From: Psammoneis japonica | Taxonomy: Eukaryota | Assembly: GCA_008632985.1 (NCBI GenBank) | Contig: QPGO01000048.1 | Span: forward strand, 491,839 to 511,838 | Direction: 5' to 3' | DNA length: 20,000 nt | Shown here: piece by piece, positions 2,147 to 20,000 of the stretch | How positions within the stretch are numbered: the first letter of the stretch is position 1 | Layout of the letters: the number at the start of each line of letters is the position of its first letter | Translations under genes and position numbers: made by a program | The notes under the pieces: model-generated | The model's input: only the letters and a program-made list of their open reading frames with translations | Databases searched by the model: none | What the model was told of the DNA's origin: nothing

Positions 2147-2814
2147 TTAGAGGGGCTCATTAGACGCGACCCACATGCGTTCCTTTGTCGTTGTTGTGTC
2201 CTGTTGCTCGCCGAGCTCAACGGCTTTGACAATGTCGTTCTTAATTGCTTCAATTAGTTTGTCGATGCCTTCGAAAGGGAGCTCTGGACGGAGATAACCC
2301 ACCACCGACAAGCGAATCGGCTCGCCATAAAACTCCCGCAACACAGTCTCACCGCAGCTTGACAAGTGCCGTCTGCTATCTTGGTCAGAAGCGATCAAAT
2401 GAGGCTCAACAGTTTTTTCCTTGTTGCCATATGTAGGGTTATATCCAATCGAAATCGCCGCCTTGAACACTCGACAGGCATCCTCGTCTTCTTTGCTGCT
2501 ACTTGGGTCGCCGATCCGAGCAAACCCCCAATAGATGCCGCACGGTAGCTCACCAAAGTTCACGCCGTGATATGAACCAGAATCACGAGAAAGGTTCGCT
2601 GTTGGAACTGTGCAGTTCAAAAGTCATCAGAATTTTACGTTACATTACAGTTGGGGGTAGAGAGACGCCAACGAATATGTGACTTACTGCCTAAATCGGA
2701 GCTTCCCCTTCCGAATCCTCGTACAACAGTGCTTGTCATTCTTATGGGCAACTGCGAGTTTGCGATCCCATCTCCGTTGATGGCGCCATTTTCTCGGGTC
2801 ATTTCGCTCTTCAT
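2147..2814 (-). CDS. RFK: Riboflavin kinase (2 exons: 2814-2688, 2607-2147; ~195 aa)
   Basis: Splicing the GT-AG intron 2687-2608 gives VVRGFGRGSSDLGIPTANL. Also present are AAISIGYNPTYGN, TVEPHLI and GYLRPELPF, all hallmark flavokinase motifs. Confidence 0.93.
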
Positions 2815-3186
2815 AGTCGTCTTTCTTGGCAACCAACAGCAACCGGTTGGGCAACCGTGATGGCTTACTGTACCTACTTCTCTCGAAGCTGTTGCAACAC
2901 GAAACGCGATCTTGAAGCAGGGCGCAGTTGGCAGATGGCATGATAATGGATGATGGCAGCGCAACCTGCGCGCGCACCGAAACCACTCATAGCACACGAC
3001 ACAACACCCAACACACCATCTACTCTCTCTAGAGAGCTACAGTAGCTACCGTACTAGATATCACTACTTCTATCACTCGACAAGCTTGCAGTTTATTCAG
3101 TTATCGCTTTGAGTTTGCGGGGGATCACCATCTTTAATCTATAGCGTGAACCTACCGTATTCACACAGAGAAATTCCCCTAGTAAA

Positions 3187-4365
3187 ATGGAATTGAATCC
3201 TTGTCGAACTGTTGTTACGAATTTCGCGTCTCGTTCCTCACCTCATACAGCTTCCGCTTTAACGAATGAGGACAGTGATGTGTATGAAAAGGGTGTGTGG
3301 GTGCTCTTTGTCGCTGCCAACTCTTTCAGCCAAAGTAGAAAATGGATAAGTGCCGCTTTAAGTAGTGGTGACATTTGTACGTACGATCAGGAGCGGCTGC
3401 AGCAGATCCATTCAAAAGCGTGCGCACATGGTGACGCCAGTGTCACCGATTTAACAGTCGGCGGCGAAAATTTGCTAGCGAGTTCTGGAAAAGATGGAAG
3501 TGTATGCCTATTTGACATTCGGCAGCCATCAGTTGCCCTCCAGTTTCATCTGACCCGTTCTGAGGAAGCTCTGTCTGTCAGTATCGGATATGATGGTGCA
3601 TTGGCAGCTGTGGGAGGGAGTAGGGCGAAGATCCATTTCTTTGATCTACGACAAGGGGGGAGTCTATTGGGTTCCTACGTAGATTGCCACACTGAAGAAG
3701 TAACGAGGGTTAGATTTCAACCGAATCCTGAAAATGAATGCACCACTACGCCAACGCTGGTTTCCGCATCAGAAGATGGATTGGCGTGCGTTTTCGACAC
3801 CAGTCAGCCGTCAGAGGATGCTGCATTGACGTCTGTTTTGAATATTCAAACGCCTCTACGTGACATTGGTTTCTTTGGCCCTTCGTATGAAGGATTGTAT
3901 TGCTTAACCGGCAGCGAAACAATGAGCATATGGCACCACAACTCAGCACAGCGCATATGCGATTTTGGAATGGACTTGCGGTCGAAGCTTTCGCGGGCTG
4001 CTGGAGGCTTAAACATTGACTACCTCGTTGGCTGCAGTTGGGACTCCAAGTTGAGCAGACTATCACTATTGTCAGGTAACTCCAATGGTGGGGCCGCTCT
4101 TTTCATGGTGGATGCCAAATCCATCACGTTGGACCATTTACTTTGTGGTGGACACAAAGGCTGTGTCCGAAGTTGGTGCGCCCTTTCACAGACGTCATTT
4201 GTAACAGGTGGAGAAGACGCGCGTCTGTGTGAATGGAATCGATCAAACAGCGGAGACTCGTCTTCAACTATGGCGGTTACCAGGAACTGTGTGAAAACGC
4301 CAGCTGTGACAAGAGGTATCCCCAGTCGACGAGAGAGGAAGAAACAGACAATGGCACCTTATTAG
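3187..4365 (+). CDS. WDR89: WD40-repeat protein, WDR89-like (392 aa, intronless)
   Basis: WD repeats (LASSGKDGSVCLFD, HTEEVTRVRF, LVSASEDGLACVFD, GHKGCVRS, FVTGGEDARLCEW) and a basic C-terminal tail ending in APY, as in WDR89 orthologues. Confidence 0.8.
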   Translation: MELNPCRTVVTNFASRSSPHTASALTNEDSDVYEKGVWVLFVAANSFSQSRKWISAALSSGDICTYDQERLQQIHSKACAHGDASVTDLTVGGENLLASSGKDGSVCLFDIRQPSVALQFHLTRSEEALSVSIGYDGALAAVGGSRAKIHFFDLRQGGSLLGSYVDCHTEEVTRVRFQPNPENECTTTPTLVSASEDGLACVFDTSQPSEDAALTSVLNIQTPLRDIGFFGPSYEGLYCLTGSETMSIWHHNSAQRICDFGMDLRSKLSRAAGGLNIDYLVGCSWDSKLSRLSLLSGNSNGGAALFMVDAKSITLDHLLCGGHKGCVRSWCALSQTSFVTGGEDARLCEWNRSNSGDSSSTMAVTRNCVKTPAVTRGIPSRRERKKQTMAPY

Positions 4366-5382: not shown

Positions 5383-7860
5383 TCAAAGCATTGCTCAAGC
5401 ACAGGAAGGAGTTGGCTTGGGGTCAATTGCTTGTCACTCCAGCACAGCACATTGTTGCATCTGTCCACACATTGCCAGAGACGAGCTGTCTGCTTTTCCA
5501 CTGGCATCTTGCCAAAAATCTTCTGGCTTGGCCATCTTCTTTTTGGGGCAGCTCAAAAGTGACAAAGCTCAGTGCCATCCAAGCCAACATTTCCTGAGCT
5601 GCCAGTGACAGAAAGCTGCTGGGGTGCCCCTTTGACAGCCAGCACAGGGGATGCACAGTGTTTTTTTTTTCCTGGCTTTTCCATTTTCTCAGCTTGCAAT
5701 GGGGAAAGCAGCTCACAATCTAGATGGTCACTTGCCTTTCCTCATGCTGCTCCACTTGTTTGGGAAGTCTTGCCCCAAGTTTGTGCAGTGTTGTCAGATG
5801 TGTGCTCGCAGGGTCAGCTGTGGCATGTGCTGTGTCACAGCAGCAGTGGAGCAGCATTGCTGATGATGAGACTGTTGTCCAGGCTCATGGGAGCTTTGCT
5901 GTGCATTTTCACAGGGGCGCGCCAATCAACCATGGCAAAGTGTTGTGCTTTCTTCAGGGTTTTTGTTGTCAAGTGATGCAATGCCAGTGAAGCTCCATCT
6001 AGAGCCATGAGCCATTTGGCAAACATTGACCAAGTCATGATCTTGTTGACTTGCATGTCTCATGCAGTGCACCTCATCACATGCCTCAAATTTTAGTTGG
6101 ATTTTTAATTGCAGTTGCTGCACTCAAAGTCTGTGCCACCAGGAAAATGAATGAAGGGCACCTGCTTTGCATGGAGGCATGCACATGAGAGAATCCACAC
6201 AGCCAAAGCAGGGCTGCATGGGGCTGATGACAACCACACTGTCCAGAGGCTTGAGATGGAAAAGACATGGTGGGGAGCACAGCACTTTCTAAAAAGGGAG
6301 CCAGCATGTTTGCACCACAGAAACAAGTGCAATTGTTTGCTGTGCTGCTCTGATGTTGTCACACAACAGCACCCAAATTGCAGCAGAGCCCACCACTCAA
6401 CACAGCATGCAGACATCATCCTGGAGCACAAGCACATGAGTGTGATCATGCTCATGACCAGTTGAAATTCAGCAAAAATTTGGGTGTCACAAAAGGCGCA
6501 AAAGATGCAAATGAGGCAGTGACCATGGCATGGTAAATGTTTTCTCTTTCTCAAAAGCTGTGAACCAAGGTGGAGTTCTGCCAGGCATCATGTTGCTCTT
6601 GAGCAACAACAAGGGCCACGTGAAGGTGCAGCACTTTGCTGTGGTTGACCGACACTCTGTGAAAATGTGCAGCAAAAAGCTGCCAGTGGTTGCCAGTGAT
6701 TTTTACATCCACAGAGTCAAACTAGCACCCCACCTCTTTTCCTTGTTGTTCAAACACACTGGGCAGCCATGTGTGCACACATGCAGCCACCTGCATGATG
6801 CGCACACATGCGCGCAGCACACATGCTGCATGAGAAGGGGGCAGGGCACAGAGCACACACCTCTCCTCTTGGACTCATCAATTTCATGGACTGCCAGTGT
6901 CCAAGTTTGCCAGAGAGACAACATGATTGCCAGGGCTCCCACAGGTGTGGGAACTCACACAGCTGGGGTGTGGTGACCATGTCTCTTGTGTGCACAATGC
7001 GCTGCACAAACCCACAAACCAGGGCTCCCTTTTTCAGGCTGCAGGTGCTTTGGCTGTCATTGTGGTTGGCTGATGTTTGCCCAATCCAGTTGTTTTGATC
7101 TTTGAGTGCACACTTTCATGTGGTGCCACAATGTGTAATGATCAAGAATGAGTTTGGATGTTTCCATTTCTTCTCCCCCCCCCCCAGGTTGCTTGTTCCC
7201 TTTGTTGCTGGTTGTTCATTGTCCACAACCCAGCCAAAATGCTGTGGAGCTTGTTTGCAAAACTTTGTGGCCCATTGTCACATGGATTCTCACCCCACCC
7301 CTCAGAGCTGGAGCATGCAGAGATCACCACTTGAAGTGCTGCTGTGTGTGAGACATCACATGATGTTGCTGGTTGGTGAGAGCAGCAGAGTGATCCCTGT
7401 TGTTTGGCGCCATTCTGACAGAAAGCAAAAGTGGTTGTGACAAGCTCTGCCTGCCAATTTGTGTCCATGTTCCCAATCTTGTTGGATCTTGCATCATCAA
7501 CAAAGAGGGCAGGGCATTGTTGCAAAGTTGTGTGCTCACAGATTCAGGCAAAAAGATGGCGGGTCAGTCGGGGCAGCTCTGTTCTTGCTGCATCAGGAAG
7601 AAAGAGATTCTCAGCTTCCTGCACCCACCTTTCTTGTGCTGTGGGCTCTCTCTGCTCCACTGCCTTGCTGTTTGTAACACACTCCAGTGCGGGCAGTTTT
7701 GCGCCAGCAGAGAGTGAGCATTGGCCAGCTCCTTGGCTGTTCATTTGGCTGTCCGCAGGCGCTTCTTTTGAAAAGCTGAAACCTTCTTCCCACCCATTTG
7801 ACTTGGATGGCAGCAAGTTGCCAATTGGACAAGGGACACTTTGTTGGCTGGCTGTGTGGG
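4960..7860. other. Second degenerate block depleted of CpG and TpA; probable hypermutated repeat/TE remnant(s)
   Basis: Same TG/CA-rich, TA- and CG-poor composition as 1-1750. Many short overlapping ORFs with no credible protein. No terminal repeats could be found by eye; boundaries are approximate. Confidence 0.6.
5354..5379 (+). repeat. (AG)13 microsatellite
   Basis: Perfect dinucleotide run read directly from the sequence. Confidence 0.95.
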
Positions 7861-8027
7861 AATGTACTTCTACGCAAGAGGCTCTCAGGGCAGATCACCG
7901 GACCGCTTGACCGCAGTGCGTGGGCCCCGTGGCCACAAAATGTCTACTACCGTACAGCCACCCATCATTCCTGTCCGTCCAACAGCGCTGACACAGACAG
8001 ATGGACAGACTTCCAGTGTCCTTGCGT

Positions 8028-8040
8028 GCGCGCGCGCGCG
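8028..8040. repeat. (GC)6G alternating tract upstream of the kinase gene
   Basis: gcgcgcgcgcgcg, about 110 bp upstream of the ATG at 8150. Confidence 0.85.
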
Positions 8041-8149
8041 TCCTCTCCATTGCCACTTCGAAGCGCCAAAGCCGCAGTCATGGCAATGGCAAGCGACCGG
8101 CTCCCGGCATTAACCGCTGACAACTGAGATCTCATTGGCGGTCATTTCA

Positions 8150-9600
8150 ATGAACGAAGCAGTAGATTATGAGGAAGAGAGCATTGTCCGTACGGTTTCT
8201 CCATCTGTTCTGCGGGAAACTGCAGCTGAAGTATTTGAAGAAGCTGCGGCACACAACTCAGTCTTCAACATCGATGCGGAAGAGAGATTGCCGCGCTTTG
8301 AGAAATCCGAAATAAAATGCGGACGTGTTCTTGGTGAGGGTGGTTTCTGCGAAGTTCGAGAAATAAAAGCCTTTGATCTAGAGTTTGCGCCTCATAAGAT
8401 GGCTTCTCGTCGTCAGAACTCGTTGAAGTCCAGTCAGAAGACTGAGGAAGCATCAACGATTTCGTCACCAGATTCTCGAGAGAAATTGTTTTGGAGCAAG
8501 AACGGAAAGGGTAAATCTCATTATTGCGTGAAGATGCTATCGGCTTATGCGGGTGAAAGCCGGAAGAGAAGCGCGGAAATTGTCAAAGCAATCGTTGATC
8601 TAGCGTTGGAGGCAAAGTTTCTGGCAGCACTGGACCATCCCCACATTATTAAGTTGGCTGGAACGTCTCGTGTTTCTCCTTTCGAGACTGGATACTTCTT
8701 GGTGTTGGAAATGTTGCCTGAAACGCTCGACACAAGAAGAAGAAAATGGGTCGTGATCGACGGACAATGTAAAGGCGTGACTGGAGCCCTGACGGGTGGC
8801 AAACGAAAGAAGTTTGCTTTTTACCGTGAGCGCTTACAGGTCGCTCATGACATTGCTAACGCAATGGGATACATGCATGGAATGAATATAGTTTATCGTG
8901 ATTTGGTGAGTGAGCCACGTATTCGCGGGCTTGTCCATTATCTTATCTGCACTAACGGTTGTCATTTCAATCGTCACTTTTCACGATGAAGAAACCAAGC
9001 AATATTGGTTTTGATAGACATCGTGTTGTAAAGCTGTTTGACCTAGGTAAGCACTCTGTGACTGCATTGACTGGGTCTGTTTGCTTCGTGACTCCAGAAA
9101 TGGAGGACCTATGGATAATGGTACTCTTGTACGCTACAACCTGTCTGTTGATACTGTATTTCCATTTTCGATGTGCTTGTGGTGACCTAGGTTTGGCAAA
9201 GCAACTTCGCGAGGACGAGAAAGAAGACGATGGCACTTACAGAATGACCGCAATGACTGGGTCCATTCGCTACATGGCTCCAGAGGTTGGAAGACCTGTC
9301 AACAAGGGTACTCTTGCGAACTACAACCTGTCGGTTGATGTATATTCATTTTCTATGTGCTTGTGGTTCATTATGTCGTTGGAGCCGCCATTTAGTCTTT
9401 GGAGCAGTCACACCATTGTCACCAAAGTGTTTCAAGAGGGAAAACGCCCTGTGACGCTCGCGATATGGTCAGATGGGTTGAAAAATTTGATGAGAAAATG
9501 CTGGAAGGAAAAGCCAACAAGTAGACCTAGTTTTGAGCGCGTCCAAGAAATGATCCTCGATGAAATTAGCATCGTTGAGTCAACAACAAAGGCAAAATGA
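8150..9600 (+). CDS. Protein kinase, probably TKL-like family common in diatoms (3 exons: 8150-8905, 8992-9046, 9191-9600; ~406 aa)
   Basis: Motifs LGEGGFCEV, YCVK, EAKFLAALDHPHIIK, YRDL|KPSNIGFD, KLFDL|GLAK, TGSIRYMAPE and DVYSF. Two GT-AG introns restore the frame (1221 nt spliced). Confidence 0.9.
9047..9190 (+). other. Kinase intron 2 (144 bp), a decayed duplicate of downstream exon sequence 9244-9367
   Basis: gtaagc...cctag boundaries. TGACCTAG|GT occurs at both junctions. Roughly 75-80% identity by eye to exon 3. Confidence 0.85.
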
Positions 9601-9680
9601 AGCACAGGCTTAGTAGACATATATTATAGAGACGAAGATTTTTCTACTCCATGGATTGCCAGATCTTCAATTTGTCGCAA

Positions 9681-10825
9681 TCAAGAACTTCGAATCGTAA
9701 GAGACGAAGCTCCACCCGACTGCCCGCCACGGCCCTGACCGACCCGCGGTACGTACTTTGTATCTGCAATCTCGCATCGATAGAACGAGACGGTGCTCGT
9801 TGAGTTAACGTCTGCCACCTGAAAGAGTTGAGATAAAGAAAAAAAATGAAAAGACGGATTCAAAATTCCCCGAAACTTCCACGTCGACAGCATGTGTTGC
9901 TACTTGTAGGAATAAAATGACGTACCGCTCCGATTTTTCCATTTCCAACATTTCCAGTCCAGAAGATGTCTTCAAATGAAGCTTCGGCACCGTCGTGGTA
10001 GAAGGTCAGAGATGCGGTGTGCGCCCCTTTGAACGTAATACCGCGTACCAGAACATTCTTGGCGTGGGGACCAAACGCAAGATGTGTCCCCCGTACATCC
10101 ACAACACAGTACTCGCATTCGATAAGAATGTTTTCTGCGTTGACATAAATAGGCCCCTTGCCCTTCAGTGTGGCTCCAGAGCATATCGTTAGCACCACAT
10201 CTTCTTCATAATAGAAAGAGCTATCCGAGAGGGCTCCATTCTGGCCTACGGCAAATGAAGAATAGTGCTCATTCCATCGCAAAAACCTTTCGGCACTCAA
10301 AGCATTTGCCTCTTGCACGGCTGCCTTTAGCGTGGCCCAGTCAGAGAACCCCATGGTAACACCGTCTTTGCACAACGTCGGATGAACAGTACGTTTCCTA
10401 AGCTCGACGTCCACGTTTTTTGGCGCATTCTCACTTTCTTGAATTACAGGCAAAGTTTCATGGTCAGATCCCTGTAGAAGCACATTTCCAGACATTATAT
10501 CATCGTCTAAAGTAGTGACACGGCGGGCGTTGACAACGAGGTCATCATTCGAGACCTGAAGATTCTTTTTCAGTGAAATGAAAGAATGCCTGGCGAACAT
10601 AGCACCAAATGCAACCACACCAATCGTGAAAATACCAAGTATCATCTTTGAACTTCTCAATATTGTCAGAATGCTTTGACTCTCTTTCATATCGTTTGGG
10701 CTCGCGGCATGCGCCTGCGCGTCCATCTTGAGCTTCGGGTGTTGTTGTTTGTGCGCAGGTTGCTGCTGGCTCTTGCGGCTTGACGACTGAGACTGCTGCC
10801 CTTTATGCTTCTTGTGACCACCCAT
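9681..10825 (-). CDS. Hypothetical type-II membrane protein with a possible beta-helix-like C-terminal domain (2 exons: 10825-9926, 9818-9681; ~345 aa)
   Basis: Long ORF with a basic/Gln-rich N-terminus, one hydrophobic segment (MILGIFTIGVVAFGAMFA) and a beta-rich C-terminal region. GT-AG intron 9925-9819 has a strong pyrimidine tract and keeps the frame. The fold assignment is a guess. Confidence 0.7.
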
Positions 10826-11307: not shown

Positions 11308-12844
11308 CTACGCGTCATTGAAAACAAAGTTTGGCATTTGTCTCTCTACGCCCTCTCGGAAATACGCATGATTCAGTGCTTCCTCGGCAGATATACGCTC
11401 TGCTGGGTTCAATGTTAACAACTTTGACAACAGGTCGAATCCATTGCTGTCCAAAAATGATTGCCCTCCTGACGGGGAGTTGACAGGAAACTTAACGGGC
11501 AACAAAGGCTTTTCTTTAGTACTTTTCCATCGGAAAATTCCTGCATTTGGTAAGTTCGAATAGCCTGGCCAATTCTCTTCTGTGGGAGCTCCCATAAATC
11601 GAAATATTTTGTCGATTTGGTCGAGCTCACCTTGTCCTTGAATCATAGCTTCTTTGGTGATGAGCTCGCCAAAGATGCAACCAATACTATATTCGACGTG
11701 AAAAACAAACGAACAAAGAAATTAACGGAGTCGTCAACAGCTGCTGTACCGTAACCACATCTAACGTGTGCTTCAACGCTTATCCGTGCTTACCTCCACA
11801 TATCAACTTCGGGTCCATAAACGCGCTCGCCGAACAGAAGCTCCGGTGGACGGTACCACAGAGTAATCACCATTTGCGTAAGTGCCTTCAAAGGACGTTG
11901 GTATTTACGTGCCAGACCAAAGTCACAAAGTGCGATGCGGCCACTCTACAGTAGTGACGGTAGTGGAAAGCAAAAGAGAAACAAACTCCACGTAAGGAAC
12001 AATCAATGTGCAGCATTCAGCGATTCTTCCCATTTCAAAGCTCCATCGAACTTACACTGTGAACAAGAATGTTTGATGTCTTTTGATCTCTATGTATATA
12101 CCATCTGGAATGTATATGGTTGGTCGCTGAAAGAATCTGGTGCAACATGCTTTTCAATTCCGACTGTGGAAAAGGACCATCGGTTCGCTTCATCGCCTCT
12201 TGCAAATCCATTTCCATGAACTGGAAGAGAAATACCAAAATCGCAATACAAGAACGAGCAATGAATTTCGAGTCATGAGAATTTCCATCATCGATTCGAA
12301 ACCACTGAGTTGGAAGAAAAGCTTCGCCTCACCTCCATGACCATGAATACTTTATCAACGCTTTTTCCGACAACCATTTCCCGCACGGTTACGATACACT
12401 CGTGACTTAGAGCTAATAGTACACTGATTTCTCTCAACGCAGTAACCGGAAAGCCTTCTTTCGTCATTTCTGAATCAAACTTGATTTGTTTTAGCGCAAC
12501 GATCTCATTTGTTGCTACGGCACAGTATGGGATTGTTTTGTAAGAAAATGAATGATCAGGCAGATTAAGAAGCAATCGACCAAACGGGCTGGTGACTCAC
12601 CTAGATCACGAGCTTTCCACACGATGCCATAGGTACCCTCATCTAACCGTGCTAAGCGTTCATAACAGTCATACACCGATCGACATCCCTGAATTAAAGG
12701 ATTATGCTTCGGCAAGTGCACCGACGTTGAAATTTCCGTGGTAGCGTTTGGTTTTTTCTGAGTAGCACTTTTCAACACAATGGACGCTTTGTTTCTCTTT
12801 TTGTCCTCTTCGTCTGAGGAAGATTCCCATCGATCTCGCTTCAT
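11308..12844 (-). CDS. CDK11: Cyclin-dependent kinase, CDK10/11 (PITSLRE)/plant CDKG type (5 exons: 12844-12601, 12514-12333, 12220-12056, 11945-11794, 11686-11308; ~373 aa)
   Basis: Motifs GCRSV, LDEGTYGIVWKARD, VALKQIK, EGFPVTALRE, HRDQKTSN, CDFGLAR, VITLWYRPPELLFG and DMWSIGCIFGE. Four GT-AG introns give an intact 1122-nt CDS. Confidence 0.9.
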
Positions 12845-13212
12845 TGTCAATTGCCATTGCAAGGGGTACAAAGAGTACAAAGATGTAAAAGAATAGTGTG
12901 CGACGCGACGAGTAGTGACGATGGACGCAGACAGACTAACTGGCTCATCGAACGCGCGAGCGAGCGACGAGCGACACGCTAGGTCTAGCACGCCCAATTC
13001 GATCGCACTTCGCACTCGTCACTCGTCAAACTTACACTTCTCGCAAGAATCGGCACAAGAGGAGGAGCAAAAGGACTAACGTGGTTTACTCGATTGCTTC
13101 TAGTAGTTACAACCCAAGCTTTCAAGAGCCACAACAAAGGAAGGCAAGAGGAGGGACAGAAAAGGTGTCAAGTAGCAGAGACAGAGTGGCAAAGAAAGAC
13201 ACTTCTTTCAGC

Positions 13213-14238
13213 ATGGACGCCTCGTTCCTACCGTATCGCCGTGCATCTTCGTACCTTGTGGAAAAACTGAGCGCGAAAGGCATCGAACACCCGTCAATCG
13301 GAATAATTTGTGGGTCGGGGTTGTCTGGCTTGTCAGAGGCTCTCGAGGGCGAAACTCTTTCTGTGAAGTACAGCGAGTTACCAGGATTCCCTGCTTCTTG
13401 CACGGTGGCTGGGCATCGTGGAGAGGTCGTTTTTGGGTTGCTAAGCGGTGTTCATACAATGTGCTTTCGTGGCAGGTTTCATTCCTATGAGGGACACGAT
13501 ATGTCGACGGTTGCGCTGCCAGTGCGGGTGATGAGGTGTTTGGGAGTGAAAGTGGTTATCGTGACAAACGCTGCGGGTGGGCTCAACCCTGAATATCGTG
13601 TTGGAGATGTCATAACAGTTACTGATCATATGGGATTACCTCTATTGGCGGGGAAGAATCCATTGCTTGGGCCCAATGATGACGAGTTAGGTCCTCGCTT
13701 TCCTCCTACAAGCAATGCCTATCCGATCATCCTTCGGGAGATAACCGCCCAGGCGGCAAAGCAACTAGACATGGACTTTGTTAGGCCAGAAGGAACGTAT
13801 TGCTTTGTTTCAGGGCCAAATTACGAAAGCAAGGCTGAATGTCGCTTTCTGAGAAATGTGGGAGGAGATGCTGTTGGCATGTCAACCGTACCAGAAATAG
13901 TTGCTGCCCATCATGCGGGGATGAAGGTTTTGTGTCTGTCTCTTATTACCAACAAAGTGATCATTTCAGGCGACGAGGGTCCCGATGCAAGTCATGCAGA
14001 AGTTTTAGAAGCTGTGCAAAAACGATCTGTTCAGATGCAGTCACTTGTTAAAAGCATTGTATCGCTTCTTCATCACGACGTTCTTGCATCGCTGCCAGAA
14101 CTTCCGCCTGTAAGCCTCAGCACCAAACCTGCTCAAGGATCGGGGGCGAAGTCGATATGTTACGCTTTGTCAGCGAGTGCGTTGCTTGCGGTAGGCTTGT
14201 TAATTGGTACACGAGGTGTGCGAAGATCAAAAAAGTAA
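13213..14238 (+). CDS. PNP: Purine nucleoside phosphorylase (trimeric inosine/guanosine type) with a C-terminal hydrophobic tail (~341 aa)
   Basis: Motifs IGIICGSGL, GRFHSYEG, VTNAAGGLN, GPNYE, DAVGMSTVPE, LITNK and SHAEV. First in-frame ATG is at 13213. Confidence 0.95.
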   Translation: MDASFLPYRRASSYLVEKLSAKGIEHPSIGIICGSGLSGLSEALEGETLSVKYSELPGFPASCTVAGHRGEVVFGLLSGVHTMCFRGRFHSYEGHDMSTVALPVRVMRCLGVKVVIVTNAAGGLNPEYRVGDVITVTDHMGLPLLAGKNPLLGPNDDELGPRFPPTSNAYPIILREITAQAAKQLDMDFVRPEGTYCFVSGPNYESKAECRFLRNVGGDAVGMSTVPEIVAAHHAGMKVLCLSLITNKVIISGDEGPDASHAEVLEAVQKRSVQMQSLVKSIVSLLHHDVLASLPELPPVSLSTKPAQGSGAKSICYALSASALLAVGLLIGTRGVRRSKK

Positions 14239-14314: not shown

Positions 14315-15553
14315 TTATGCGCGTATTTCACTATGGATACCCCGTTTCTCTTTGACTTCGGTAGCTGCTTGTCGTATTCTCTTCATCGTATCTGCATTCC
14401 AGGGAGGCAAGTGTTCGTGTTCGCAAACGACAGCCCCAATAGCAGAAGCGATGCAACCAGCATCGACGAGAGGGACTCCTGCGCCAATGCAGGTCGTCAT
14501 GGCTGCAGAGTAGGCGTTCCCAGCCCCCGTAGGATTCACGGGACTACCATCGCAAGTATGAAGCTCGGCAGCTGGGATGAGGGATTTGGTTTCTGAGCCC
14601 CGTTCCCTAATAAAGCTACCTCTCGGACCATCTCTCACCGCTACATCCCATTTTCTCCAATAGGTTTTATCAAACGCCCTGTAAAGGTGCATATCCGGTG
14701 AAATGACGTCAAACACGGTACTTATTCCATCTAGGCGAGAAGAGCATGATTCTGAATCTCTTTCAGACATGTTACCAGTTGCGGCGTCCGGAAAAGCAAT
14801 CGGTTCTATTCCTATAACCTTCGCCTTCTCTGTCAAAGATCCATCTCTAAGTAGCATGCTGTCCTGCCCAGCACCTGGTGAGTCCGCGCCAACCTCTATG
14901 ATCAAATGCAAGGTAGAGAGAGTTTCCTCTTCTCGTAAACATTTTAAAACATCCGCAGCAGATGGACGATTCCTCCACAACCCCCCAGCGCCTTCTGGTC
15001 CAAAACTATCGTTCAGGGGCATCCACTGGACATTTTGGTCTGAATCATGCCACAATTGGATGCGAGGTGTACGATATGCTGGTCCTTCAAGGACTTGTAA
15101 CGAATCAACCATAGGGTCCAACAGCTCATGCAGCGCATTGTTTTCACGTTCAGACCAATCAAGTTTTCCGACTGGGCCAAGAAATGTAACTGGCTGGGGC
15201 AGAGGATCATCTTTTGAGTCGTTATCAAGTACCGCCAGCGCAGCTGCAGCTCCAAACGCTGCCTGAGGCCCACCACCTCCAATCGATAGTCTTCCGTCAG
15301 ACGGGCTTTCTAGCTCCTTTCGGTAGTCATCAATTATAATTTTTCCTGCATAACGACGAAGGTGAAGCGTCTTATGATGAAGCAGAAGAAAGCGTACAAC
15401 TTAAAATGGACAACGGAAGATCAACAGTCTCTCCTTACCGATAACAACTACCCGTTGCTTTGAGATTGCCCTGTTTGGGATAGAAAGCGATTTGGCATAC
15501 TGAAGTGCGACAAGGACCAGCGACACAAAGAGCCACTTGCATCTTGCATTCAT
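14315..15553 (-). CDS. PfkB/ribokinase-family protein with GAGN motif (Mak32-like) and a probable signal peptide (2 exons: 15553-15439, 15345-14315; ~381 aa)
   Basis: Splicing intron 15438-15346 gives RVVVIGKIIIDD...IGGGGPQAA. Also DVISPD, VRDGPRGS and VNPTGAGNAYSAA. Confidence 0.85.
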
Positions 15554-15775: not shown

Positions 15776-15930
15776 GCGGCTATCGCCGCTTTTCTCGTTT
15801 ATCCTCGGCGGCGATCTTCAAGCTAGTGTAAATCTAAAGGCCAGTGATCCAAGGTAGGAGTGGAGTGGGCTTTACTAGCACACGAACTTTCCTTCTCCAA
15901 ACAAAAAACCCAGGTTGGACGGCAAGGGCC
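15776..15930 (-). repeat. Split direct repeat B2 (155 bp), the 3' terminus of the element
   Basis: Matches 16098-16252 with 2 mismatches. Confidence 0.95.
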
Positions 15931-16097: not shown

Positions 16098-16252
16098 GCG
16101 GCTATCACCGCTTTTCTCGTTTATCCTCGGCGGCGATCTTCAAGCTAGTGTAAATCTAAAGGCCAGTGATCCAAGGTAGGAGTGGAGTGGGCTTTACTAG
16201 CACACGAACTTTCCTTCTCCAAACAAAAAACCCAGGCTGGACGGCAAGGGCC
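16098..16252 (-). repeat. Split direct repeat B1 (155 bp)
   Basis: Matches 15776-15930 with 2 mismatches. Confidence 0.95.
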
Positions 16253-16352
16253 TCCAGCCACCTCCAAATGCATTGCATGAGCTGCGCAGGGCGCAGTGGA
16301 GGCTGTGATAAATTGGGTGGGAGAGGTGGGATCGTCTGGCGGGCTGTGGCGG

Positions 16353-17524
16353 TCAAGGCATGGCAGGAGCAATGGGAACGTCGGCATTCGGATGGAGGAC
16401 GAAGTGGCCACCGGCGAGCATGCGTTGGGCGAAATTGCGCATGACAGGCTCCGCTTGTAGATGGAGGTGTCGGAGCATTTCGTCGGACCGCCATCGGCCC
16501 AAGAGACGAATTGTGTCCGTGTCGACTTGGGCACACAGCAATCCCATGGCACCCGTGGCTCGAAGGCAGCGCGCGGAGACATCGGAGGGAAGGAATCCGA
16601 GATTCTGTGGACCAAGTGCAGTGACGGCAGTGCGGAGGATGGACGTGATGTCAGTGGGCTGACTCGGTGCCAGCGTCCGTTGCAGAAGTAGACTGACAAA
16701 GGTGTGTCAGGCAAAGCGCCAAAGGCGCGCAAGTGAAGCATTCGGCGTACGGCAGCTTTGACGGGGCAGAGTTGCGGGTGGCCGGAGAGGCCAAGGCCGA
16801 CAACTTCGCCACGAACTCCATTCTTTTGCGCAGTGAAGGTGAGCGTGGTGAAGGTTGCAGCGGCGAGCTGCGCGTCTGGGGCATGGAAGACATCCAAACA
16901 GATGCCACCAGTGGAGAGGCGTGCGTCGGCGAGCCAAAAAGGAGCAGTCTCCGAAGGGGTGGCTGTGCATTCACCAGGACGCAAGAGAAAGAAAAAGGCA
17001 AGGGCGATCATGTCAGCGACAGCATGGGTGCCGGGGTGCTGACTGGTGGCAGCAGCAGCCAAGATCCAATGGAGTGCGGCCACGGGGACAGGTTTTACAC
17101 GGTCGGTGGGTGGATCCTGCTTCTTGCAGTGACGGATCTGGCGGGTGAGACGGAAATCCAAGCCGCCTTGGAGGGTGAGCCGTGGGTCCGGGGCCCCCAT
17201 TGCAGCGAACGTTTGGCCAACCGACCGCAGGGCATCTTCAGCGGTGCGTGCACGGACGGGATTGCCACGTGGGGCGAGGACTCCGACTCAACATCGGTGG
17301 AGGAAGACTTGGAGGAATAAGATGGGGTCTTCGACTTCGACAAGGAGTGGATCGACGGCCAGTGTGTGGCAGAAATTGGCCCAGAGGTTCCAATGGGTGT
17401 CGGCGGCGGAGGCTCGTGAAGGGGCAACTGCAAGGGCAATGGCTCTCTGCGCAGCACCGAGGTCACGAAGGAAATCAGCTTTCGTGGCGGGGTCCACAAG
17501 CGCCAAGGTTTGGTCTGCGGGCAA
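16353..17524 (-). pseudogene. Tyrosine recombinase ORF of the retroelement, disrupted
   Basis: Motifs AFFFLLRPGE, QKNGVRGE, LCPVKA, SARCLRATGA and IRLLGRWRSDEMLRHLH. Lesions: in-frame TGA at 17288-17290, a frameshift near 16657, and the catalytic Tyr position reads CAC (16467-16469). Confidence 0.9.
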
Positions 17525-20000
17525 TGGGCATTAAAATGGTGCAAAAATTCCGTGTTAGTCAGGGATTGTAAACGGGAAGCATTGTCAGCGGCGGTGTTGA
17601 GGGTGCCTTGTAGGAAGTCGTGAATGGTGACGTGACGATGGAATCGTTGATGGCAAGCTTGGCAGCGATGGAACTCGGCACGAAGCTTGGAGGCAGTGGA
17701 GGAACCTTTGCGTTGCCAGAACAAAGTGCCCAAACTGTCAGTGCGCTGAAGGTTGGTGTGCTCCCGCAGGTCGAAACATTCGGATGCAGCGTGTGTGTGG
17801 ACGATGCTGCCCACGAGTTCAAGGTCGGTGTTGGTGATCGGGCCGTGAGGATTCTCGCAGGTGGCGAGGTCCTGGGTGACCTGGTTTGGGAAAGGCATGC
17901 GCCAAACAACGGGACCGGGGTTGGTTTGAATGCGGCGGCATCCGTGTGGACTAAATTTTAGTTTGGTGGCGCGTGGGACGGAGGCTGCGGTGGGTAAGAT
18001 GATGCTGCCGGCGCCATGACCGGCCGCATCATGGCAACCATGGACACTCGGGTCCAAGGGGACAAGTTCTTGAATGCGCACCGGGCGTTGTTCGACGCAT
18101 GCGTGTAGATCTCTGAAGTCGTCCATGATGGAATGGAAGGCCGGGCCGNNNNNNNNNNNNNNNNNNNNNNNNNNNNNNNNNNNNNNNNNNNNNNNNNNNN
18201 NNNNNNNNNNNNNNNNNNNNNNNNNNNNNNNNNNNNNNNNNNNNNNNNNNNNNNNNNNNNNNNNNNNNNNNNNNNNNNNNNNNNNNNNNNNNNNNNNNNN
18301 NNNNNNNNNNNNNNNNNNNNNNNNNNNNNNNNNNNNNNNNNNNNNNNNNNNNNNNNNNNNNNNNNNNNNNNNNNNNNNNNNNNNNNNNNNNNNNNNNNNN
18401 NNNNNNNNNNNNNNNNNNNNNNNNNNNNNNNNNNNNNNNNNNNNNNNNNNNNNNNNNNNNNNNNNNNNNNNNNNNNNNNNNNNNNNNNNNNNNNNNNNNN
18501 NNNNNNNNNNNNNNNNNNNNNNNNNNNNNNNNNNNNNNNNNNNNNNNNNNNNNNNNNNNNNNNNNNNNNNNNNNNNNNNNNNNNNNNNNNNNNNNNNNNN
18601 NNNNNNNNNNNNNNNNNNNNNNNNNNNNNNNNNNNNNNNNNNNNNNNNNNNNNNNNNNNNNNNNNNNNNNNNNNNNNNNNNNNNNNNNNNNNNNNNNNNN
18701 NNNNNNNNNNNNNNNNNNNNNNNNNNNNNNNNNNNNNNNNNNNNNNNNNNNNNNNNNNNNNNNNNNNNNNNNNNNNNNNNNNNNNNNNNNNNNNNNNNNN
18801 NNNNNNNNNNNNNNNNNNNNNNNNNNNNNNNNNNNNNNNNNNNNNNNNNNNNNNNNNNNNNNNNNNNNNNNNNNNNNNNNNNNNNNNNNNNNNNNNNNNN
18901 NNNNNNNNNNNNNNNNNNNNNNNNNNNNNNGAACCCATCGGACATGTCTATTTTCATGAGGTAGACCCGTCCTTTGGCGGGATTGGCAAGGAGAATGCGA
19001 CGCAAGAGTCGATCGAGCGCGCGTCCAAATTGCACAGCCTCGACCGGTGCGTCAGGCTGTGTGGCGTCGTTGGTGCCAAAATGCGTGTGGTCGACAATTG
19101 GCCGAGGCCGTCGACTGTGTTGTGGGACCACGCCAATGGGGCTAATGCGGAGGCCCGACAGTTGTCGGACTTCCTCGTACGGGACCACGACCCAGAAACC
19201 CTTGTCCACACAGTCGGACACATCTTCTCGTAAAAACTCGATGTGTTCGTAGGCGGACTTGTGGGGGCCCCTGTCGACACTAGCGTCGAGTTCCTCAGAG
19301 CTCCATGGTGCGTCGGCAACGGTGATGGGGACTCCGTGATGCTGGCAGTGGCGAAGGATCCGGCGTGCCGGATGATTCTGAATGCGGCGCATCGGGCCCA
19401 AGTCACCTCGTCCACGACGTTGACGCAACAAATGGCTGAGACCGTGCTGACGCAAAATTTTAGCATCGCGTGTGATGCTCTTGCCCAATTTGTCAGTTTC
19501 AACTGATGCAGCAATCGCCTGTCCACGGAGCGTGGGGCGGCGTTGCTGTTGACTAAACTGTGCCGCCTGCGGGGGTGGCGGAGGAATTGGCACCAGGTTC
19601 ACAGTCCCCGAACTGGAACCATTGCCGACGACCCATTCGGTCGTCCAATGCTCGGCCGCCCATTCGTAGAGGGTGTTTTGCTCTTCCTTGGAGTGGCCGG
19701 TCCGATGGTCATGACTGCTGCCACAATTCGTGTTGCATTGGCCTTTAATGTGGCAGGGCAGGCAACGTACCCGGCCTTGAGCATCGAGGGGGAGAGCAAT
19801 GTTGTTTTCGTTGCACCGGAGCTTAACGTCACGCGATCGTACATTGGGGCGAGCACGGATCTCGTCGAAGTGGGCATCGTACTCTGGGTTACGCTGGAGG
19901 GTGTTTGCGCCCGGTGTCTCTCTGGATTGCGCTGCGGGTGCTGAGGCTGGAGCTGGTGCTGGCGTGTTTGTATTCGCGGGCCGATGAGAAGCGGGACGAA
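17095..20000 (-). pseudogene. gag C-terminus plus RT/RNase H reading frame of the retroelement, interrupted by an assembly gap
   Basis: CLPCHIKGQCNTNCGSSHDH zinc finger (19705-19764). RT motifs LRISPIGVVPQ..RRPRPIVD, QFGRAL and KIDMSDGF. RNase H acidic motifs HDAAG, TDLEL, TDS and ADNASR. The 3' end overlaps the YR ORF by ~430 nt. Confidence 0.85.
18149..18930. other. Assembly gap (782 N) covering the RT catalytic core
   Basis: Run of N. Confidence 1.

Follow-up and report, generated by a model that had tools for sequence, protein, structure and literature searches.

In the Rogers model of intron gain, a segment of an exon is duplicated in tandem, the first AGGT serves as the donor and the second as the acceptor, and the protein is left unchanged. 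A 2012 review, in the part that was available, tabulates 188 events for this mechanism, many of them imprecise (PMC3443670), so the preliminary description of the present DNA, which had called clear examples scarce, was right for precise, sequence-traceable cases and not for the mechanism overall. The intron considered here, intron 2 of a kinase gene, would share each of these features, and it differs from the model in that it is not of unit length (144 versus 184 nt), its donor has been remodeled, and its unit held two AGGT sites.

The published cases below are cited from the accessible portions of the respective papers. Intron 8 of vertebrate ATP2A1 dates back more than 420 My, and the origin inferred for it was re-enacted in cells, with 6 to 16% splicing (Hellsten et al. 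2011, PMC3265369). As at our locus, it was gained precisely at an AG|GT between the first and second bases of a Gly codon, and its paralogs are intronless. Only in our gene, however, is the source still 78% identical, and while in the ancestral ATP2A1 exon the pyrimidine tract and branch point preceded the AG, those of intron 2 would derive from the unit's downstream end. The tandem-duplication introns of Drosophila were proposed from proto-splice scores, their footprint has possibly been lost, and 18 of 18 sequences have premature stops (PMC2891723). They too involve an AG|GY proto-splice site duplicated in coding sequence, with later improvement of the splice signals proposed, whereas intron 2 is free of stops and retains a 125-nt footprint. 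Duplication of AG|GY in coding sequence also underlies the 24-bp AGGT arrays of fission yeast and the teleost cases, as cited in PMC4974935 and PMC3265369.

The intron of a potato RdRp gene (Ma, Lan and Niu 2016, PMC4974935) is likewise a recent gain by local duplication with a traceable source. There, the duplication crossed an existing intron-exon boundary and inherited 3' signals, whereas the traceable part of intron 2 is purely exonic; a search of the window at E 1e-3 found no preexisting intron sequence inside intron 2, the 12-nt head being too short for it. The neointrons of Daphnia, attributed to double-strand-break repair (PMC4202315), resemble intron 2 in having a short direct repeat at the exon end and at the far end of the intron, but their body is usually of unknown origin, while 125 of the 144 nt here come from the adjacent exon. 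For most reported intron gains, according to the portion of PMC4974935 at hand, the source sequence is not identifiable. The literature searched, which left most subscription journals outside its coverage, yielded no diatom example of an exon-duplication intron, and the available portions of PMC13685798 and PMC12130899 contained no comparable case.

The mechanism is already published, and intron 2 is a well-supported and unusually well documented natural example of it: its source can be traced, its junction is precise in a transcript-like contig, phylogeny gives the gain a direction, and the gene holds an internal marker of time. With roughly 0.2 substitutions per site accumulated, the passage from exon copy to ordinary intron is visible in a donor change, the loss of an AGGT, and a 40-nt cut. 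Its sequence at birth can be inferred base by base, and therefore a minigene can test the splicing of the raw duplication and the effect of each later change, a test so far made only for the re-enacted vertebrate case. Its value is that of a clean, intermediate-age, experimentally tractable example rather than that of a surprise.

Gene model and splicing of intron 2

The window, meaning the whole 20-kb stretch of DNA that was analyzed, carries a protein kinase gene with the following parts.

8150..8905, plus strand: exon 1, coding part, 252 codons, the last motif being the catalytic-loop YRDL (open frame, Pfam)
8906..8991, plus strand: intron 1, 86 nt, GT..AG, phase 0 (skipped in contig X2)
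8992..9046, plus strand: exon 2, 55 nt, its last base being the first base of the Gly codon in the DLG motif
9047..9190, plus strand: intron 2, 144 nt, GT..AG, phase 1 (skipped in contig X2, present in contig X1)
9191..9600, plus strand: exon 3, with the activation segment, the C-lobe, and the stop codon

The spliced protein has 406 residues, and exons 1 and 3 each score above the Pfam cutoffs for Pkinase and PK_Tyr_Ser-Thr. The locus is single copy in its own genome. Only one of the top homolog clusters carries a species name, that of the diatom Cylindrotheca closterium, and "diatom-type" is a description of the kinase family. Intron 2 starts with the donor GTAAGC at 9047 and ends with the acceptor TAG at 9190; its length is a multiple of three and it has no in-frame stop, which leaves an open read-through, and the preliminary description had overlooked both properties. 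Intron 1 has a CTAAC branch-like motif 36 nt from its 3' end.

Splicing was assessed by comparing contigs over 7800 to 10200 from three runs of one sample, none of which is on record as RNA, X2 being labelled "DNA?". X2 is represented by one contig that starts at 8067, 83 nt ahead of the ATG, and skips 86 nt (intron 1), 144 nt (intron 2), and 107 nt (in a convergent minus-strand gene), with no letter differences otherwise; the two unrelated introns are GT-AG. With three clean intron removals on two strands, we infer that X2 is cDNA or a transcript assembly. It joins 9038 to 9183 with 10 ambiguous letters, a range that includes the cut 9046/9191, so that the junction for which the preliminary description had proposed to look in RNA reads is spanned by a transcript-like contig, of one sample and from a run not on record as RNA. 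Intron 2 is spliced out exactly at present in this one contig from one sample; contigs give neither splicing efficiency nor exclusion of minor retention. The spliced protein has no indel relative to the paralogs at the D-x-G motif. X1 contains the whole stretch unspliced in one contig at 99% identity or more, with two small indels elsewhere, and may be the source of the assembly. The third run, X3, contributed no contig over the stretch.

The contigs differ from the window at a few further places. At 8431, X1 has a 3-nt in-frame insertion relative to both the window and X2, with intron 2 still present, perhaps a second allele, and it is one base short at 9659. At 9659 to 9663, X2 has 56 other letters and continues into the convergent minus-strand gene; possibly two 3' ends were fused by the assembly.

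Intron 2 aligns to exon 3

Self-blastn of the 20-kb window aligned 9059-9183 with 9245-9367 at 77.8% over 126 columns (E 2.8e-21), matching the 75 to 80% previously judged by eye. Only two repeats were found in the window at E 1e-3, this pair included, and self-comparison of the locus, proposed earlier as a dot-plot, gave one direct repeat. The pair reaches a local score of 112, whereas 500 shuffles averaged 17 and never exceeded 25, and 125 of the 144 nt of intron 2 align to exon 3. The features of the repeat are as follows.

9039..9048, plus strand: junction repeat TGACCTAGGT, first copy, whose AG|GT is the donor
9183..9192, plus strand: junction repeat TGACCTAGGT, second copy, whose AG|GT is the acceptor
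9183..9366, plus strand: putative ancestral duplicated unit, 184 nt (3n+1)
9059..9183, plus strand: decayed exon copy, template 9245-9367, with 24 of 122 aligned bases substituted, plus one 1-nt deletion and one 3-nt insertion
9047..9058, plus strand: intron head with the consensus donor GTAAGC, 12 nt in place of 54 nt of exon template
9096..9100, plus strand: destroyed second AGGT in the intron copy, counterpart of the exon AGGT at 9284-9287 (alignment, AGGT scan)
9148..9152, plus strand: TTGAT, candidate branch point derived from the Val-Asp codons of the exon, 39 nt short of the intron's 3' end (motif scan)

The 10-mer reported at both junctions is thus present at each, and the exon-like copy stops precisely where its second occurrence starts, which puts the breakpoint of the duplication at 9182/9183, where the microhomology amounts to 1 nt. 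The intron-side unit (9039-9182) has 144 nt and the exon-side unit 184 nt, a net loss of 40 nt that agrees with the earlier account of a first copy about 40 bp short with a gtaag donor. The preliminary description had overlooked that the duplicated unit held a second AGGT (9284-9287); of the two pairs a single one is in use, and in the other the upstream AGGT was ruined by two substitutions and a 1-nt deletion. The description had also traced the AGGT to the DLG motif. This is borne out at the focal site, where the sister paralog L003 reads TTT GGT, but DLG alone is insufficient: L015, L019, and L021 have DLG without AGGT, and the focal unit had its second AGGT besides.

Pyrimidines make up 62% of the last 40 nt of intron 2, as against 60% in both the template and intron 1, and no AG occurs in the final 83 nt ahead of the acceptor. 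A derivation of the GTAAG donor from the template by two small deletions was considered and is not claimed, because random heads fit equally well (41% of random 12-nt heads, and 57% of GTAAG-led ones, score equally). A 14-nt imperfect inverted repeat, 9041-9054 and 9179-9192, spans both splice sites and consists mostly of the palindromic core ACCTAGGT; RNA pairing of the intron ends could result. The palindrome ACCTAGGT also lets the joint in X2 read CT..AC at an alternative cut.

Absence of intron 2 from paralogs and homologs

In a protein search of the own genome, 0 of 19 paralog loci had an intron at the site of intron 2, the D-x-G motif being read through uninterrupted, and none of 29 metagenome loci had one either. 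The metagenome scan was built from exon-1 sequences only and is therefore unbiased at this site; it gave 30 loci, of which 29 reach the motif and two (L023 and L024) look like one sequence. At the site of intron 1, 11 of the 29 loci have a GT donor exactly there, so the loci are genomic and the test was able to detect introns. Of 150 representative proteins, many being unprocessed reading frames from genomic DNA, 51 are interrupted at the site of intron 1. That site is old and common to homologs, and it acts as an internal positive control. The motif is reached by 68 representative proteins: 65 are uninterrupted, 2 (P0068 and P0112) break one base upstream of the focal site, and 1 (P0154) ends at DFG. 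An intron five bases downstream is found in L012 and P0034. Given these introns in distant homologs, offset by one base upstream or by five downstream, the motif region seems to have gained introns several times; the phase-1 break of the focal gene was found in none of the paralog, metagenome, and representative-protein sets.

Trees were built first with FastTree and then with IQ-TREE on 47 of 96 query-anchored rows; 121 of 217 sequences had been left out, L001, L002, and L024 as self or duplicate and the others for coverage below 75%. The focal gene and L003 form a sister pair (UFBoot 99) nested in a clade of 37 members (UFBoot 100); intron 2 is absent from every other member of the clade for which there is DNA. 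Word-based homolog searches gave 3 and 14 matches only. The best homolog has 52% amino-acid identity, no close ortholog was found, and fourfold sites relative to L003 are saturated (5 of 21 identical), so that absence of the intron is established for distant relatives. The expectation that orthologs and paralogs lack the intron accordingly held in all 19 paralogs and 29 metagenome homologs, its ortholog part extending to distant relatives.

Age and decay of the copy

The segment from APE to DxYS has 17 residues in the focal protein and 11 in 95 of 95 homolog rows, L003 included, the difference being a gene-specific 6-codon insertion after APE in exon 3. The insertion is covered by the alignment of the intron copy, in one frame of which a recognizable form of it can still be read. 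Because the intron copies an insertion that is absent from all 95 rows, the duplication is younger than the insertion and falls on the focal gene's own branch.

The copy and exon 3 differ by substitution at 24 of 122 aligned bases (Jukes-Cantor 0.23). Of these substitutions, 7 fall in 28 synonymous and 17 in 92 nonsynonymous sites, and by these counts no residual coding constraint on the intron copy is seen. The exon keeps the family state at the strongly conserved R297, Y298, M299, A300, V303, Y322, and S323, which identifies the intron as the diverging copy; the latter has lost conserved activation-segment residues and shifts frame. CpG positions changed in 5 of 8 cases and other C/G positions in 7 of 49 (Fisher p 0.007, a small and post hoc comparison), and none of the four CpG in the exon template is preserved in the intron copy, which hints at decay driven by methylation. 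Hypermutation at TpA was rejected as the source of the divergence, since 3 of 12 TpA positions changed, without excess, and the TA counts are 6 and 7. At the laboratory diatom mutation rate of 4.77e-10 per site per generation, given in the available text of PMC12130899, the 0.21 corrected nonsynonymous differences would correspond by hand estimate to about 4e8 generations, or roughly a million years if cells always divided as fast as they can, and longer under natural conditions.

Proposed origin of intron 2

We consider it likely that intron 2 arose by a 184-nt exon duplication across AG|GT that was rescued by splicing, in keeping with the Rogers model, and was later shortened and fitted with a consensus donor. 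Birth by tandem duplication across AG|GT, as first suggested in the preliminary description, is supported by the junction contig, the repeat, and the intronless paralogs and homologs; a qualification is that the 12-nt intron head, donor included, is untraceable to the exon.

The gene would at first have been continuous from exon 2 into exon 3. After its split from the nearest paralog it would have gained the private 6-codon insertion, and the duplication would have followed. A 184-nt coding piece, beginning 8 nt ahead of the AG|GT in the DLG codons, would then have been duplicated head to tail. A length of 184 nt, not being divisible by three, would have shifted the frame of the unspliced message, and read unspliced, the duplication has an early stop. 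Splicing from the first AG|GT to the second would have removed one unit length and restored the protein. Splicing at either matching AGGT pair of the 184-nt duplication restores the frame, and the first pair is the one used. With only 8 nt upstream of the AG|GT copied, the sequence ahead of the acceptor is the downstream end of the unit; the T-rich unit end and TTGAT ahead of the new acceptor may thus have supplied the 3' signals. The 39 nt from TTGAT to the acceptor are near the 36 nt of the CTAAC of intron 1. The upstream copy, free of protein constraint, would afterwards have decayed with a net loss of 40 nt; at some stage, presumably under selection, the donor would have changed from GTTTGG to GTAAGC and the competing second AGGT would have been lost.

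Several points weigh against this duplication model. The comparison reaches distant relatives only, some of these have introns close to the focal site, and the splicing evidence comes from a single sample, with X2 not on record as RNA. The presumed birth donor GTTTGG looks weak: it has the +5 G and is otherwise poor, and the 51 homologous breaks at intron 1 comprise 0 Val-Trp, 35 Val-Ser, and 16 Val-Arg. The intron also falls 40 nt short of the unit length, and its head of 12 nt cannot be derived from the template.

We screened 861 kb (98 stretches, about 1% of the genome) and found 111 pairs of tandem-like short repeats, among which the focal one alone has an in-register AGGT pair and a GTAAG donor; this screen was made without RNA support, and its open-frame filter misses short exons, the focal case included. 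One GTGAG pair, at L106, lies outside any open frame. Raw duplications thus appear to be common here and an intron outcome of this kind does not. Tandem pairs were also noted near four paralogous kinase genes (L006:1888-2086, L008:2918-3124, L015:373-563, and L017:2768-2906); they are 83 to 87% identical over 60 to 98 nt and have no in-register AGGT pairs.

Alternative explanations

One-step templated repair insertion would draw on the same source, the adjacent exon, and reach the same outcome as duplication by a different route, the intron being born near its present length and perhaps with its present donor. The perfect 10-nt direct repeat at both ends lies inside the 4- to 12-bp range given for Daphnia in the accessible part of PMC4202315, the head cannot be traced to the template, and no weak GTTTGG donor is needed at birth. 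We nevertheless regard this route as unlikely: the copy ends at the start of the second 10-mer, as plain tandem duplication predicts; the fillers of Daphnia are described in the available portion of PMC3265369 as dissimilar to flanking sequence; and a filler unrelated to the flanking exon, the expectation for repair insertion, is not what is seen when 125 of 144 nt align to exon 3. The later 40-nt loss assumed by tandem duplication is no special plea, because the copy took at least two further indels. Highly improbable, in our judgment, is an older intron at the site that supplied the GTAAG donor and had most of its body replaced by a spliced (cDNA) fragment or a boundary-crossing duplication. 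It would account for the consensus donor and the untraceable head, and a few distant homologs do have introns one to five bases away. The exact site is intronless, however, in all paralog and metagenome loci (19/19 and 29/29), the Phe codons (TTY) leave no AG ahead of Gly, intron 2 matches neither intron 1 nor, its exon template aside, other DNA of the window at E 1e-3 (the 12-nt head being too short), and two or more extra events would be required.

That the segment is no intron at all, being instead a retained, translated 48-residue insertion, an assembly artifact, or an allele difference with X2 as DNA lacking the duplication, is extremely improbable. The segment is 3n and stop-free, as are about 4% of shuffles (11% without the 3n condition), and X2 is labelled "DNA?"; yet X2 also skips the 86-nt plus-strand and 107-nt minus-strand GT-AG introns and starts upstream of the ATG, X1 has the entire unspliced stretch at 99% or better, and the copy has shifted frame and lost conserved activation-segment residues. 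Assembly collapse cannot yield the skip, because no identical run of anywhere near 31 nt is common to the two copies. An introner or transposon origin was rejected, the own-genome search, in which one candidate region was scored and distant copies could escape, having returned the intron and its exon template only. If tandem duplication is taken as the origin, a further proposal is that the intron was trimmed to a 3n, stop-free 144 nt so that regulated retention adds 48 residues after DLG as a switch between active and inactive kinase, with intron gain from local copies ongoing genome-wide. A retained insertion would begin with a degenerate activation-segment copy. We rate this proposal as improbable, because part of the intron is still in the ancestral open frame and the 3n/stop-free test was post hoc.

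Other features of the window

The convergent neighbor gene (9819-10825, minus strand) has the 107-nt GT-AG intron that is removed in X2, and the 300-residue first part of its product gave no Pfam match. Judging by motifs, we take the other genes to encode a riboflavin kinase-like protein (2147-3036, minus strand), a WD40 protein (3145-4365, plus strand), a CDK-like kinase (11308-13018, minus strand), a purine nucleoside phosphorylase (12940-14238, plus strand), and a sugar-kinase-like protein (14315-15400, minus strand). A run of N occupies 18149-18930 (782 nt). A 155-nt direct repeat at 99% (15776-15930 and 16098-16252) lies beside an open reading frame at 16145-17287 on the minus strand, which presumably encodes a retrotransposon tyrosine recombinase.
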